64,000 nucleotides of DNA from Candidatus Limnocylindrales bacterium (GTDB taxonomy: Bacteria; Chloroflexota; Dormibacteria; CF-121), in NCBI GenBank assembly GCA_035632635.1, contig DASQGL010000074.1, positions 4,601 through 68,600 on the forward strand, read 5' to 3'. The position numbers and the translations under genes are program-made. Positions 54,902-58,757 of this stretch are shown here, in pieces. The notes beneath the pieces are model-generated. The model was given only the letters and a program-made list of their open reading frames with translations, did not search any database and was not told where the DNA came from. Position 1 is the first letter of the stretch, and each line of letters opens with the position of its first letter.

Positions 54902-56605
54902 CTAGCCCACCAGCGCGGGGCCCGCGGCGGCCGGCAGGCGCAGGATGCTTCCGCTCGCCTGGAGCGCGACAAGCGGCGGGCCGACGTGGTGCAAGGTCCG
55001 GTGGGACGCGGACGTGACCGGCTTGGGAAAGGTGGTCAGCGGGTGCCGGAGTACGGTCTTCTCGACACCTTCGAGCATGGCGGTGTTGTGCACGAAGCCC
55101 GCGCCGCTCTGGATGTCGGCCGCGCTGGTGGACGGGTGGCCCCCCCACGGCGTCCCGATGCCGAAGCCCCAGGCTGCCCACAGGTTCAGGCTGACGGTTC
55201 CGTAGCGCAGATCCACCAGCGCCTGCTCGAGGGCGACTGCGACCCGGGGGTCACGCAGGCTCCGGGGCGACACGACCACGGTCGCGCTCAGCGTGCCCCA
55301 GACCCGCTCGTTGAGGAAACGGACCGCCTGCTCGAGAAAGGCGACCGGGTCGTCCGCGGGCAGCGACGTGTGGGAGAGGATGGCGCAGAACGGCTCGCGC
55401 CGGAAGGCCACCTCGTCGTCCGCCGCAGGATCGAGGTCGGGGAGCAGCGTCCAGGGCAGCGCGCCGTCCGCTGCGCCCGGGGAGGCGGTCACCGTGCGAT
55501 GCCGCGCGGTCAGCTCGCGCCACCGTTCCTCGGACCCCGGGTAGTACGCCTGGCGAACCGGGGTCCGGGCGAGCGCCGCCTCGATGCCGCGAAGCAGCTC
55601 AGGTCCCTGGCCGAAGCCGCGGGCCGTCACCAGCAGCTTGTTCGCGTTGCAGTTGAAGGACGCGTTGTTCGTCACGCCGCCCGCGATGTGGTCGGCCTGC
55701 CACTGCAGCTGACGCGGCCGGTAGTCCCCGGGGACGACGATGACCGGCGAGATGCTCCCCAGCTCCGCCGTGACCGGCTTGGAGAGCACCGGCCGCCGCT
55801 GCGCCTTGCGCAGCTCCTGCTCGGGACCCGGCGGGCCGAACACCAGCGCCTCGTAGGTCCGGTCGGAGCCCGTGATGTGAATCTCGTCCACCGCCGGGTG
55901 GGCGGCGAGGTAGGCGCCCTCCTCCGCGCCGCCGTAGACGATGGCGAGGAATCGCTGGCGAATGGCATGCTCGAATGCCTGCTCCAGGAGCGGCCCGAGG
56001 TAGGCGTTGACCGGGTGCATCTTCAGGATGCACACCTTCCCCTCGTTGAACAGCTTCGTCGCCACGTCGAGTGGCGGGATCGCGTTGACGTTGCCGGCGC
56101 CGAGCACCAGGACGCAGGCCGGTCGCCCCGCATGGCCGTCCCGGTAGAAGGACGCGCGCTGGTCGGCGGCCGCCCCGCGGCGCAGGTGCACCTCGGCCCG
56201 CAGCGAGGGGAAGACCGCCCAGTCCAGCGCGCCGCCCGGGTAGACGCGCACCGACACGCGGGAGTCGATGGTTTCCCGAAGGCCCCCGACGCGCGTCGAG
56301 CCCGTCCGCGCGATGGCTCGCAGCGCGTCGTGCCATTGCCGCAGGAGGGTCAGGGTGATGACCGGACCCGAAAGCCATTCCTCGCCTTCGGCAGGCGTGC
56401 CCAGGGGAATCCGTTTCGCCAGGCAGGCGAGGTGGACGCTCGGCTTGGCAATGCCCGCGTAGCCGCGGCGCATGGACTCGACCAGCGCGATCCGCTGGGT
56501 GATGGGCAGCCGCACGAAGGCGGCCGCCCCCTCCTGGAGCCGCGCCAGCGCGGCGTCCATCGCGGCCTGCCGCGTCGGGCCGGGCGCAGCAACCGTAGCA
56601 GCCAT
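54902..56605 (-). CDS. aldehyde dehydrogenase superfamily protein (atypical, 567 aa)
   Basis: It has ELGSISP (ELGGKSP-like) and a catalytic-Cys region NASFNCNANK. The start is either 56605 or MDAAL at ~56560. Confidence 0.65.
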   Translation of the reverse strand: MAATVAAPGPTRQAAMDAALARLQEGAAAFVRLPITQRIALVESMRRGYAGIAKPSVHLACLAKRIPLGTPAEGEEWLSGPVITLTLLRQWHDALRAIARTGSTRVGGLRETIDSRVSVRVYPGGALDWAVFPSLRAEVHLRRGAAADQRASFYRDGHAGRPACVLVLGAGNVNAIPPLDVATKLFNEGKVCILKMHPVNAYLGPLLEQAFEHAIRQRFLAIVYGGAEEGAYLAAHPAVDEIHITGSDRTYEALVFGPPGPEQELRKAQRRPVLSKPVTAELGSISPVIVVPGDYRPRQLQWQADHIAGGVTNNASFNCNANKLLVTARGFGQGPELLRGIEAALARTPVRQAYYPGSEERWRELTARHRTVTASPGAADGALPWTLLPDLDPAADDEVAFRREPFCAILSHTSLPADDPVAFLEQAVRFLNERVWGTLSATVVVSPRSLRDPRVAVALEQALVDLRYGTVSLNLWAAWGFGIGTPWGGHPSTSAADIQSGAGFVHNTAMLEGVEKTVLRHPLTTFPKPVTSASHRTLHHVGPPLVALQASGSILRLPAAAGPALVG

Positions 56606-56612
56606 TGCTACG
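56594..56612. promoter_or_regulatory. 19-bp palindrome CGTAGCA-N5-TGCTACG (copy 1) at the ALDH start / ATPase stop
   Basis: The site lies in the context GCAACCGTAGCAgccatTGCTACG. The arms are perfect 7-bp inverted repeats. Confidence 0.5.
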
Positions 56613-56615
56613 AGC

Positions 56616-57800
56616 CTAGCCCTCGACGCCCTGGCGGAGCAGGAAGTCGCGATAGAGCGGGAGGCTGAACGCGACCTCTCCCCGCTCGGCCGGCCGGTAC
56701 AGCTGGCCCCGCTCGACCAGCCGCGCGATCGAGGCCCGCAGCAGCGCCCGGCTCCCCGGCCAGGTGACGGCTTCGATCCGGGCGCGCTCGCCGACCCGGG
56801 CGATCGCCAGCAGCGCCTCCCGCTCGGCCCGCGGGAGCTTGCGGAAACGCCCTTCGAAGAAGCTCTCGTCCAGCTCGTTCAGGAGCAGCGGCCGGAGCAG
56901 CTCCAGGGCGTCGACGTCGAATCGATCCTCGTCGGGGACGCTCTCGATCAGGAAGGAGGCATAGTACTGGAGGAAGTAGGGATACCCACGCGTCTCGGCC
57001 ACGATCCGCTCGATCAGCGCCGGTGAGAAGGTCACCGACGAACGGCCCAGCGGACGCGTGATCGCGGCCCGGGCGTCGGTGGGCTCGAGATTGTCCAGGC
57101 GAAAGACGACCAGGTCCCGCTCGAGGTAGCTGCGACTCTTCACGATGTTGGGAATGACGGTCGGCAGGCCGCTGACCACGAGGACGACCGGCAGCCCCTT
57201 CAGTTGGACGCGCTTGACCGCGTTGAAAAGCGTGGCCAGGGGCGCCTGGCCCTTGCGGCGGCCATCCCAGACTTCGTGGAACTCGTCGTAGAAGAGCAGG
57301 AGACCCTTGTGCTGATGACGGACGACCGGCATCAGCTCGTCGAACATCCGGACCAGCCGGTCGGTGGGGGGCGCGGGCGGCTCCTTCGCATAAGCCGGAC
57401 TGTAGGTGATGCCCCAGGCGGCGACGTCCTTGGGCCGGAACGTCTCGACCAGGCGGCGGCCGGTCCGGCGCATGCGCAGTGCGAGCGAGGCGCCCGTCCC
57501 CACCCGCAGGAGATCGCTGGCGGTCGCGCGCACGAGCGCCGCCGTCTCGTTCAGGGTCTCGTCGAGCTCGCGCTCTGCCGAGAGCCAGCCGTTCAGCTGG
57601 GCCAGCTTGCGGAACTCTCCGAGCAGGACGGTCTTCCCCGTCCCGCGCAGTCCGGTGAGCACCACGTGGCGCGGCACACGCGTGGCGCGCTTCAGGTGCC
57701 GTTCGAAGGCTCCGAGCATCGCATCTCGACCGGCGAGGAAGGGTGGAGGGTAGCCGGCCCCCGGCGTGAACGGGTCGCGGATCGCTCGCGGGCTCGCCAC
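56616..57800 (-). CDS. Orc1/Arch-type AAA ATPase (Arch_ATPase/DUF234-like)
   Basis: It has a Walker A GLRGTGKT and a Walker B LLFYDEF, with a C-terminal winged-helix-like region. The start is GTG 57800. The alternative overlapping frame 56608..57816 is Arg/Pro-rich and was rejected. Confidence 0.7.
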   Translation of the reverse strand: MASPRAIRDPFTPGAGYPPPFLAGRDAMLGAFERHLKRATRVPRHVVLTGLRGTGKTVLLGEFRKLAQLNGWLSAERELDETLNETAALVRATASDLLRVGTGASLALRMRRTGRRLVETFRPKDVAAWGITYSPAYAKEPPAPPTDRLVRMFDELMPVVRHQHKGLLLFYDEFHEVWDGRRKGQAPLATLFNAVKRVQLKGLPVVLVVSGLPTVIPNIVKSRSYLERDLVVFRLDNLEPTDARAAITRPLGRSSVTFSPALIERIVAETRGYPYFLQYYASFLIESVPDEDRFDVDALELLRPLLLNELDESFFEGRFRKLPRAEREALLAIARVGERARIEAVTWPGSRALLRASIARLVERGQLYRPAERGEVAFSLPLYRDFLLRQGVEG

Positions 57801-57808
57801 GTAGCAAC

Positions 57809-57827
57809 CGTAGCACGCGTTGCTACG
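57809..57827. promoter_or_regulatory. 19-bp palindrome CGTAGCA-N5-TGCTACG (copy 2) in the divergent ATPase / coxD promoter region
   Basis: The site lies in the context GCAACCGTAGCAcgcgtTGCTACG, 9 nt upstream of the ATPase GTG start and ~20 nt upstream of the TAGAAT element of coxD. Confidence 0.5.
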
Positions 57828-57860
57828 GGCATTGGCTGGTCACCTTAGAATGGGTGGGCG

Positions 57861-58757
57861 ATGGAAGGCCTGCCGTTTTCGACCATCGAGGAGGTCGAAG
57901 ACGCCCTCCGCGAGCATCATTACGTCGCCGGGCGCGAGCTTGCCACCACGATCTTCCTGGGCCTCAAGCTCGACAAGCCGCTCCTGCTCGAGGGGGAGGC
58001 CGGCGTGGGCAAGACGGAGGTCGGCAAAGTGCTCGCCGACATCCTCCAGGCCGACCTGATCCGCCTGCAGTGCTACGAGGGCATCGACATCAACAACGCC
58101 GTCTACGAATGGGCGTACGCGCGCCAGATGCTGCACATCCGGCTGCTCGAAACCCAGGCCGCCGATCGCGCCGCGATGGAACGCGAGATCTTCAGCCCCA
58201 GCTTCCTGGTCAAGCGCCCGCTGCTCCAGGCGATCGAGCACGGCGGCGCGCGACCACCCGTGCTCCTGATCGACGAGATCGACCGGTCGGACGACGAATT
58301 CGAGGCGTTCCTGCTCGAGCTGCTCTCGGACTTCCAGATTTCGATCCCCGAGATCGGGACGATCCGGGCGGAGCGTCCGCCCGCGGTGGTGATCACCTCC
58401 AACCGCACCCGCGAGATCCATGACGCGCTCAAGCGGCGGTGCCTCTACTTCTGGATCGACTATCCGAGCGTCGACCGGGAATTCGAGATCGTCCAGGCCA
58501 GGATCCCGGACGTGCCGCGACGGCTCAACCGCCAGGTGACCCGGTTCATCGCCCAGGTCCGCCAGCTCGACCTCTACAAGCTGCCCGGCATCGCCGAGAC
58601 CCTGGACTGGACCCGCGCCCTGCTGGCCCTGGGCGAGACCGAGCTGAGCGAGCACGCGGTGCAGGCCACCCTGGGGTCGATCGTCAAGTACCAGGAGGAT
58701 CTCGCCCGGTTGCGCGGCGAGCAGACCCGGACGCTGCTCAAGGCCTCGGGTGCCTGA
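57861..58757 (+). CDS. coxD: MoxR-family AAA ATPase (CoxD-like)
   Basis: It has a Walker A LEGEAGVGKT and a Walker B LLIDEIDR. A TAGAAT lies 9 nt upstream of the ATG. Confidence 0.85.
   Translation: MEGLPFSTIEEVEDALREHHYVAGRELATTIFLGLKLDKPLLLEGEAGVGKTEVGKVLADILQADLIRLQCYEGIDINNAVYEWAYARQMLHIRLLETQAADRAAMEREIFSPSFLVKRPLLQAIEHGGARPPVLLIDEIDRSDDEFEAFLLELLSDFQISIPEIGTIRAERPPAVVITSNRTREIHDALKRRCLYFWIDYPSVDREFEIVQARIPDVPRRLNRQVTRFIAQVRQLDLYKLPGIAETLDWTRALLALGETELSEHAVQATLGSIVKYQEDLARLRGEQTRTLLKASGA

Follow-up and report, generated by a model that had tools for sequence, protein, structure and literature searches.

In iteron Rep systems (such as pPS10 RepA, F RepE, RK2 TrfA) and in that of DnaA, autorepression works through an inverted repeat that spans the promoter of the initiator gene and is bound by the winged-helix initiator itself; the initiator binds direct repeats elsewhere, and the specificity of the sites changes with the protein from lineage to lineage. 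Rep proteins are of the WH1-WH2 type, without a P-loop ATPase domain, and their iterons measure 17-22 bp. Archaeal Orc1/Cdc6 proteins, of which 2v1u and 2qby are DNA complexes, have an AAA+/lid/winged-helix fold, and their origin recognition boxes (ORBs), 20-35 bp in length, lie as short inverted and direct repeats immediately beside the protein's own gene. MalT, a STAND/LAL protein and ATP-dependent transcription factor, joins a Pfam AAA_16 ATPase to a C-terminal LuxR helix-turn-helix domain, and its MalT boxes are asymmetric 10-mers. For the ATPases of the type of PABY2304 (2qen) and SSO1545 (2fna), which belong to Pfam PF01637 (ATPase_2), our literature searches found no report of a cognate DNA element. 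Here we describe a gene for an AAA_16 ATPase that is bracketed by two copies of the palindrome CGTAGCA-N5-TGCTACG within the aerobic CO-dehydrogenase (cox) cluster of a 64,000-nucleotide stretch of contig DASQGL010000074.1. This stretch is called the window, and coordinates refer to it unless another locus is named. We lean, by somewhat more than even judgement, towards the view that the two palindromes are the cognate operators of the bracketed ATPase, which would bind them through its winged helix and regulate its own gene, effects on the neighbouring genes being secondary.

The ATPase (394 residues) passes the curated gathering threshold of Pfam AAA_16 (PF13191; 48.6 bits, cut-off 32.6) and has weaker similarity to nSTAND1, AAA_22 and TniB. 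An AlphaFold2 model based on 26 homologs (pLDDT 87.8, pTM 0.83) consists of an AAA+ domain, a lid and a C-terminal winged helix formed by the last 70 residues. A Foldseek comparison of the model with solved structures yielded as best matches, aligned over the full length, the archaeal Cdc6/Orc1 structures 1fnn (E = 9e-11), 2v1u (4e-10), 2qby (8e-10) and 1w5t, followed by the archaeal AAA+/winged-helix ATPases 2qen and 2fna, likewise aligned over the full length and identical to the ATPase in size and domain order; MalT was also among the fold matches (8bob). Despite this fold the protein is not an Orc1/Cdc6 member by sequence, as its Pfam matches include no Cdc6/ORC family and a profile search against the PDB gave only E = 0.0019 to 2v1u over N-terminal residues 15-95; moreover, its host is a bacterium. 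The sites share with ORBs the position beside the protein's own gene but differ from them in their 7-bp half-sites, their tight 12-bp/9-bp geometry, their placement on the flanks of the gene itself and the lack of an AT-rich unwinding element, no AT-rich stretch having been seen beside either array when the window sequence was read by eye. The Rep WH1-WH2 architecture is absent, and instead of iterons there are 9-bp repeat units next to the gene of an AAA_16 ATPase. In common with MalT, the protein pairs an ATPase with a predicted DNA-binding domain, but it is much smaller, has neither a sensor/TPR arm nor other STAND sensor domains, carries a winged helix in place of the LuxR helix-turn-helix and is accompanied by palindromic arrays. 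The window ATPase itself has no PF01637 match, unlike the proteins represented by 2qen and 2fna, although a few of its homologs do, and some homologs have a precomputed MarR_2 Pfam match. By analogy, the module may work like an autoregulated winged-helix initiator or regulator, following the logic of iteron Rep and DnaA autoregulation.

Two elements bracketing one ATPase gene

A pattern search of the window for CGTAGCA-N5-TGCTACG yielded exactly two matches, copy 1 at 56594-56612 (CGTAGCA GCCAT TGCTACG) and copy 2 at 57809-57827 (CGTAGCA CGCGT TGCTACG). No further copy appeared when three mismatches were tolerated, and none of 100 dinucleotide-preserving shuffles of the window contained a match, so that zero are expected. 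The two palindromes had been noted, with these coordinates and a shared extension, in a preliminary description drawn from the letters of the DNA; the coordinates are confirmed, and the extension proved to be longer than described, since the direct repeat comprises 31 nt (56585-56615 and 57800-57830) with 26 of the 31 positions identical and four of the five mismatches within the 5-nt spacer. The repeat consensus CG(C/T)AGCA-AC-CGTAGCA-N5-TGCTACG contains three half-sites, such that each element is built from an inverted pair of the 7-bp half-site TGCTACG and a third, direct half-site in a 9-bp register.

Both elements, read on the minus strand, which is that of the gene, together bracket exactly one gene, the ATPase open reading frame (ORF) at 56616-57800. 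The upstream element (57800-57827, copy 2 with its third half-site) has the sequence CGTAGCA-ACGCG-TGCTACG-GT-TGCTACG; its third half-site (57800-57806) shares one base with the gene, the final base of the element being the G of the GTG start codon. The downstream element (56585-56612, copy 1 with a degenerate third half-site) has the sequence CGTAGCA-ATGGC-TGCTACG-GT-TGCTGCG and lies 3 nt from the TAG stop codon of the ATPase (56616-56618). The spacer of copy 1 holds the first ATG (56603-56605, minus strand) of an ORF that encodes a protein resembling aldehyde dehydrogenase (ALDH), and copy 2 lies in the 60-bp divergent region between the ATPase gene and coxD, 18 nt from the TAGAAT box of coxD at 57846. 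The positional details given in the preliminary description were borne out, though it did not mention that the ATPase gene is exactly bracketed by the two copies. Its concern that the motif might occur at random, non-promoter positions was answered for the 64 kb, in which the only two copies are those at the ATPase flanks. A REP- or MITE-like dispersed repeat (repetitive extragenic palindrome or miniature inverted-repeat transposable element) was rejected for the same reason of copy number and because related loci carry the palindrome solely at the flanks of the ATPase gene.

Within the ATPase gene, on the minus strand, the Walker A motif GLRGTGKT (residues 50-57) is encoded at 57630-57653 and occupies invariant columns of the homolog alignment, as does Walker B with D172-E173. 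Predicted secondary structure and the alignment place the coding region of the C-terminal winged helix (approximately residues 321-394) at 56619-56840. Within it, the putative recognition helix (residues 351-363; 56712-56750, minus strand) contains an invariant L354-R355 followed by Ala356, whose identity correlates with the half-site class as described below. An exact-match search with the window ATPase had no result; gene callers begin the protein at M28 (P0001).

Conservation and covariation of the half-sites

Orthologs of the ATPase occupy the same place, between coxM and coxD, on three metagenomic contigs, L002, L003 and L001, with protein identities in the homolog search of 89%, 88% and 85%, respectively, and the upstream element stands directly 5' of the GTG in all three. 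In the four loci of this cox clade (the window and L001-L003) all 14 positions of the palindrome arms are invariant, whereas none of the five spacer positions is (ACGCG, AGAAA, GGACG, GCACC) and the intergenic sequence around the element has diverged. The third half-site is the same in three of the four loci and carries one change in L001 (TGATACG). As the dS of the ATPase genes is 0.7-1.1, neutral sites have largely turned over in the clade. Because the arms are invariant, the spacing fixed and the spacer free to vary, the alignments support the view that the element behaves as a sequence-specific protein-binding site and not as a chance palindrome or a simple hairpin. The gene itself is under purifying selection (dN/dS 0.08-0.11) and has a host-like GC content at third codon positions (GC3) of 0.90. 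Global pairwise identities within the clade are 84-88% for the ATPase, 76-80% for coxE, 75-78% for coxF and 79-86% for coxM, and no relaxase, type IV secretion system (T4SS), integrase or other recombinase was found near the cox-clade loci. The ATPase thus equals its cox neighbours in conservation and is, in this clade, a selected gene passed on by vertical descent.

The linkage of element and ATPase extends beyond the cox clusters. Among the loci examined, those that encode a homolog of 57% identity or more and whose 5' end can be read (the window, L001-L007, L088-L091, L098 and L099) have the element at the 5' end of the gene in 14 of 14 cases; the ATPase is the only gene that always accompanies it. 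The homologs with 57-69% identity are located outside cox clusters, in conjugative or integrative element contexts that contain neither cox nor ALDH genes. In L007, L098 and L099 the ATPase gene lies between a coupling protein of the TrwB/TraG type (type IV coupling protein, T4CP) and a Replic_Relax relaxase, in a neighbourhood that includes genes for ParB, SLT and VirB4-like proteins; in L004 and L091 it follows a DNA methylase; and in L005 it is located beside a large serine recombinase that abuts tRNA-Ala. A downstream copy is present in the window, L002 (spacer GTGGC), L004, L005 and L091 and absent in L001, L003, L007 and L098. In L004, L005 and L091 it lies just 3' of the stop codon, and in the window, L002 and L091 its spacer includes the start codon of the next gene.

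The half-sites fall into seven classes, TGCTACG, TGTTACG, TGTTATG, TGAAACG, TGCTGCG, TGCTGCA and TGTTGCG. Read on the gene strand, the element is CGTAACA-N5-TGTTACG-TT-TGTTACG-TT-TGTTGCG in L004, CATAACG-N5-CGTTACG-TT-TGTTATG in L005 and CGTTTCA-N5-TGAAACG-TT-TGAAACG in L006, L088 and L089. Two direct copies on either side are present in L007 and L090 (CGCAGCA-GA-CGCAGCA-N5-TGCTGCG-TT-TGCTGCG), L098 (TGCAGCA-AG-TGCAGCA-N5-CGCTGCA-TT-TGCTGCA) and L091 (CGTAGCA-AA-CGTAGCG-N5-TGCTACG-CC-TGCTACG). L099 contains two tandem units of CGCAACA-AA-CGCAACA-N5-TGTTGCG. Constant across the classes are the N5 gap, the 2-bp gap between direct copies and the 9-bp register. Between classes the arms change symmetrically and the direct copies change with them, even though the latter have no hairpin partner in arrays of the 1+2 type, and within a class the arms do not drift. 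The covariation of unpaired direct copies, the fixed spacings and the lack of arm drift together suggest that an oligomeric protein, co-evolving with the site, reads the sequence of duplex DNA, and they speak against a structure maintained by pairing alone.

Whether the ATPase could be that protein was approached by comparing its winged helix with the half-site classes in eight lineages, without formal phylogenetic correction. In a tree computed from residues 9-320, which form the AAA+ part, the TGC-type classes come out as polyphyletic: the sister of the window clade is P0005, a TGTTACG protein, that of P0011 (TGCTACG) is P0009 (TGAAACG), and P0012 and P0014 (TGCTGCG and TGCTGCA) branch outside. 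The winged helix of the window protein is 73-74% identical to those of P0012 and P0014, compared with 53-57% for the AAA+ part, whereas the corresponding values for P0005 are 66% and 70%. Directly after the invariant L354-R355, every TGC-type lineage has Ala and every TGT/TGA-type lineage has Val or Thr, a pattern that implies at least three concordant switches. These data are suggestive of covariation between winged helix and half-site. With one candidate specificity residue, the seven classes form a compact natural series in which the evolution of winged-helix specificity can be followed.

The closest ALDH homologs beyond the ATPase loci (P0123 in L095 and L096, P0124 in L097) belong to cox clusters without the ATPase, in which the ALDH gene occupies the place between coxM and coxD. 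The intergenic regions between coxD and ALDH of these three loci contain neither CGTAGCA-N5-TGCTACG nor any of its variants. As L095 is the nearest relative of the ATPase-bearing L003 (coxD 95%, coxM 91%, ALDH 84%), the ATPase-less state of L095 is a loss, in which ATPase and element disappeared together. The absence of the motif upstream of orthologous genes in relatives had been named in the preliminary description as an observation that would speak against it. The element, with half-sites that differ by class, stands at the 5' end of every ATPase homolog counted above; at the cox genes of L095-L097, and at the ALDH gene of L003, it is missing.

Proposed regulation by the ATPase and competing explanations

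The comparisons establish the sites with their geometry, conservation and covariation, their exclusive linkage to the ATPase gene, the fold of its product and the purifying selection on it; from linkage, fold and covariation we infer that the ATPase is the binder, with transcriptional autoregulation as the presumed outcome. Acting as a dimer or larger oligomer, the ATPase would use its winged helix to contact the half-sites, possibly in a manner dependent on its nucleotide state. Since the upstream array covers the start codon of the ATPase and its likely core promoter, occupancy would autoregulate the gene, most likely by repression. A TANNNT hexamer (TACGGT; TACGTT in relatives) is located 6 nt upstream of the GTG, and a leaderless ATPase transcript whose operator covers this -10 hexamer would fit, as a conjecture. 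The upstream array also covers the -35 position of the divergent coxD promoter, where an effect on the divergent operon is plausible but secondary. With the downstream array over the ATPase stop codon and the ALDH start and the upstream array over the coxD -35 position, occupancy could secondarily gate the neighbours. For the downstream array, one possible role is to control or stop read-through into the gene that follows, and another is to pair with the upstream array in a repression loop; it is dispensable in several lineages. In this reading the module of ATPase and sites stems from a family of conjugative and integrative elements and has been retained vertically inside the cox cluster, in a lineage probably related to Candidatus Dormibacterota, as judged solely by its nearest named ALDH homologs.

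Several points weigh against autoregulation by the ATPase. For the assignment of the ATPase as the binder, the evidence of linkage, fold and covariation comes from no more than about eight lineages, and AAA_16/STAND-type ATPases are not typical simple repressors. The overlap of the upstream array with a promoter is conjecture, and a promoter scan of 56400-58000 found no sigma-70 consensus promoter. The element keeps no fixed place with respect to the called start; at the extremes, it lies 21 nt upstream in L098 and within the first ~20 codons in L006 and L091. The downstream copy, whose role is left unexplained, occurs in only 5 of ~11 distinct lineages. The arms are capable of forming stable RNA hairpins according to predicted folds. 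Finally, the joint loss in L095-L097 could be trivial, as the upstream site abuts the gene and one deletion could take both.

A more far-reaching proposal is that, throughout a widespread bacterial family, the Orc1/Cdc6-like ATPase and its own specificity-matched flanking arrays make up a self-contained module that serves integrative conjugative elements in replication, maintenance or regulation and that, in a Dormibacterota-like lineage, has been domesticated in the aerobic CO-dehydrogenase cluster as an ATP-dependent switch for the divergent coxDEF maturation genes and the adjacent ALDH gene. We regard this proposal as speculative and rather unlikely. For CO-oxidizing soil bacteria, the ATPase is a candidate for a local regulator encoded within the cox cluster itself.

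In the preliminary description the palindrome was interpreted as an operator at which a dimeric transcription factor co-regulates ALDH, ATPase and probably coxDE, with no regulator gene adjacent; such a factor would be a separate and unlinked one. The idea of an operator has stood insofar as invariant arms, fixed spacing and a free spacer are the behaviour of a protein-binding site, and such a factor would be in keeping with a palindrome of this kind, with copy 2 close to TAGAAT in the divergent region and with copy 1 at the ALDH start. The proposed ALDH/cox regulon has not: the ALDH gene of L003 lacks its copy, the clusters of L095-L097 retain ALDH, coxD and TAGAAT yet have no palindrome, and the element accompanies the ATPase into conjugative contexts without cox or ALDH. 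The operator of a separate ALDH/coxD factor would have been expected to survive the loss of the ATPase and did not, which counts against such a factor, as do the covariation of the half-site with the winged helix of the ATPase and the lack of a third copy in the 64 kb, where there is no sign of a wider regulon. The statement that no regulator gene is adjacent is not supported either, as the bracketed ATPase, which always accompanies the element, is a DNA-binding candidate with a C-terminal winged helix on an Orc1/Cdc6-like fold. A separate factor is accordingly considered improbable. It is improbable, to a lesser degree, that the elements function as nucleic-acid hairpins, in mRNA or single-stranded DNA (ssDNA), that control translation or mRNA stability, form a structure at the transcript end after the ATPase, or represent an origin of transfer (oriT) or ssDNA signal of the ancestral conjugative element. 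The stems of 7 bp are perfect, arrays of the 2+2 type form hairpins of 16-17 bp, and the predicted RNA folds of copy 2 (-25 kcal/mol, z = -2.8) and of L007 (-34.5 kcal/mol, z = -3.7) are stable; the symmetric changes between classes preserve pairing, several deviations are compatible with G-U pairs, and on conjugative elements the gene is found beside relaxase and T4CP genes. Arguing against hairpins is the complete lack of compensatory or wobble changes at the 14 stem positions of the cox clade despite the dS of its ATPase genes, which indicates that the sequence and not pairing alone is conserved. In addition, the unpaired direct copy covaries with the arms, the fixed 5-nt gap and the 2-nt spacing of direct copies point to the geometry of DNA binding, and the distance to the start codon is variable. 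The predicted fold of copy 1 is no better than that of shuffled sequence (z = -0.8), the cox context has no relaxase, and a covariance-model search of 56300-58100 with Rfam 15 gave no match at E <= 1. An intrinsic terminator was rejected because a terminator scan of 56400-58000 revealed no terminator-like site and no U-tract.

The same binder could serve another purpose if the arrays resembled iterons or ORBs in function and belonged to a module for replication or maintenance, the ATPase being an Orc1/Cdc6-like initiator, or a relaxosome or partition accessory, of an integrative conjugative element, of which the cox copy would be a retained relic. This would agree with the Orc1/Cdc6-like fold, with arrays in a 9-bp register that flank the gene much as ORBs adjoin orc1/cdc6, with close homologs encoded between T4CP and Replic_Relax or beside a serine integrase and tRNA-Ala, and with family members on 97 plasmid records. 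However, the cox-clade ATPase has diverged together with the cox genes, has a host-like GC3 and a dN/dS of about 0.1 and has no relaxase, T4SS or integrase nearby; why it was kept so long, by vertical descent, in a chromosome-like cox cluster devoid of transfer genes would be left unexplained. Given also that neither array has an AT-rich unwinding element beside it and that the ATPase is no sequence-level Orc1/Cdc6 member, we assign this explanation a small probability. The smallest probability is assigned to a small mobile cassette that carries the ATPase gene and of which the copies would be the ends, the sites of recombination or a target-site duplication. Direct repeats that bracket exactly one gene, flanking copies also in L004, L005 and L091, and the polymorphic presence or absence of the ATPase among cox clusters would be expected of a cassette. 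In both copies, however, the arms are conserved and the spacers diverged, which reflects functional constraint and not the history of a duplication; by this pattern a target-site duplication was rejected. Furthermore, four loci (L001, L003, L007, L098) have no downstream copy, ATPase-less loci display no clean single-site scar, the cox context lacks a recombinase, and the ATPase has a host-like composition and has co-diverged with its neighbours. An integron attC site was also rejected, the 19-bp core being far too short and no integrase being present.

Neighbouring genes and the wider ATPase family

The ALDH-like gene (54902-56605, minus strand), which encodes an aldehyde dehydrogenase resembling acyl-CoA reductases, is an inconstant partner of the element. 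The downstream element supplies the first codons of this gene (MAATVAA). Gene callers begin the protein at M16 (P0121, 552 aa), and the peptide upstream of this residue (..PT(S/R)xQA(A)MDAAL; window 56560-56605) is conserved in relatives, which makes a start in the spacer of copy 1 plausible. The nearest named ALDH homologs are from Candidatus Dormibacterota. In L003 the ATPase and ALDH genes overlap by GTGA, and L001 has neither ALDH nor the downstream element. L001 contains instead an AMP-binding gene of the acyl-CoA-synthetase type (4397-5962 of L001), inserted between the ATPase gene and coxD and separated by 38 nt from the ATPase start. The palindrome of L001 is 11 nt from the start of this divergent gene, whose promoter must overlap either the element or the coding region of the ATPase. 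On the other side of the window element, the -10-like box TAGAAT of the divergent coxD (57846-57851, plus strand) lies 9 nt before the coxD ATG (57861). In all cox loci compared (the window, L002, L003, L095, L096 and L097) the box precedes the coxD ATG by 9-10 nt, with or without ATPase and palindrome. This constancy suggests a near-leaderless coxD mRNA and a coxD promoter that is independent of the element. In the ATPase-less L095 (5933-6000) and L097 (1890-1968), a common non-palindromic stretch, GTTGTAAC(G/T)TA(G/C)GTT(C/G)CGTGG, occupies the position homologous to that of the element, and after it comes a GTG that is in frame with ALDH. The stretch may be what is left of a decayed element, the former ATPase start having been taken over by ALDH, or an unrelated promoter; the similarity is weak.

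On the conjugative elements, the order of TrwB/TraG-like T4CP, ATPase and Replic_Relax is conserved in L007, L098 and L099 and is followed by ParB_N and DUF4417 in L007 and L098; in these elements the ATPase may be part of the relaxosome or of a transfer operon. The serine recombinase of L005 (4324-5921 of L005) is an ORF that was missed by the gene caller; it contains Resolvase, Recombinase and Zn_ribbon_recom domains, directly follows the ATPase gene and borders on tRNA-Ala(GGC), where an integrated conjugative element ends. In L099 the entire 2+1 array upstream of the ATPase homolog is tandemly duplicated (~1230-1320). The N-terminal extensions of P0008, P0009, P0011 and P0015 are literal translations of the repeats (..FETFET.., RRVANVAGAATPAT, RRAANAANPAATAA; L006 ~1290-1320, L091 ~1600-1640), which means that these start codons were called wrongly or that, in these lineages, the 5' part of the coding region contains the element.

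In public annotation the ATPase family appears only as "ATP-binding protein" or "AAA family ATPase", and NCBIfam, PADLOC and PHROGs gave no functional name. The only PADLOC match was to mad8, at the level of the P-loop (E = 0.003), so that no known anti-phage defence protein was recognized. Our literature searches found no description of the family or of its element. The family occurs at least 595 times in GTDB species-representative genomes, where all relatives have at most 37% identity to the window ATPase, so that its close orthologs are absent from that set; a metagenome scan with a profile of the close subfamily gave only five loci, and a scan of viral contigs gave none. For this widespread unnamed family, a defined and co-varying DNA element provides a first testable function. 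Repeats near the gene were also surveyed in 91 loci, chosen to include homologs with ~30-35% identity to the query as well as close ones. Of the 5' regions, 42% contained inverted repeats of at least 7 bp and 29% contained direct repeats of at least 8 bp; the corresponding values for control windows were 14% and 10%, which amounts to a two- to three-fold enrichment. One large distant subgroup, distributed over several phyla, has CTAAATTTAG twice with a spacing of 18 bp. In eight loci (L015, L017, L021, L042, L046, L048, L051, L060), (C)TAAATTTA(G) occurs twice with the same 18-bp spacing, ~100 nt before the ATPase homolog, and this subgroup probably represents a second, widely transferred specificity class.

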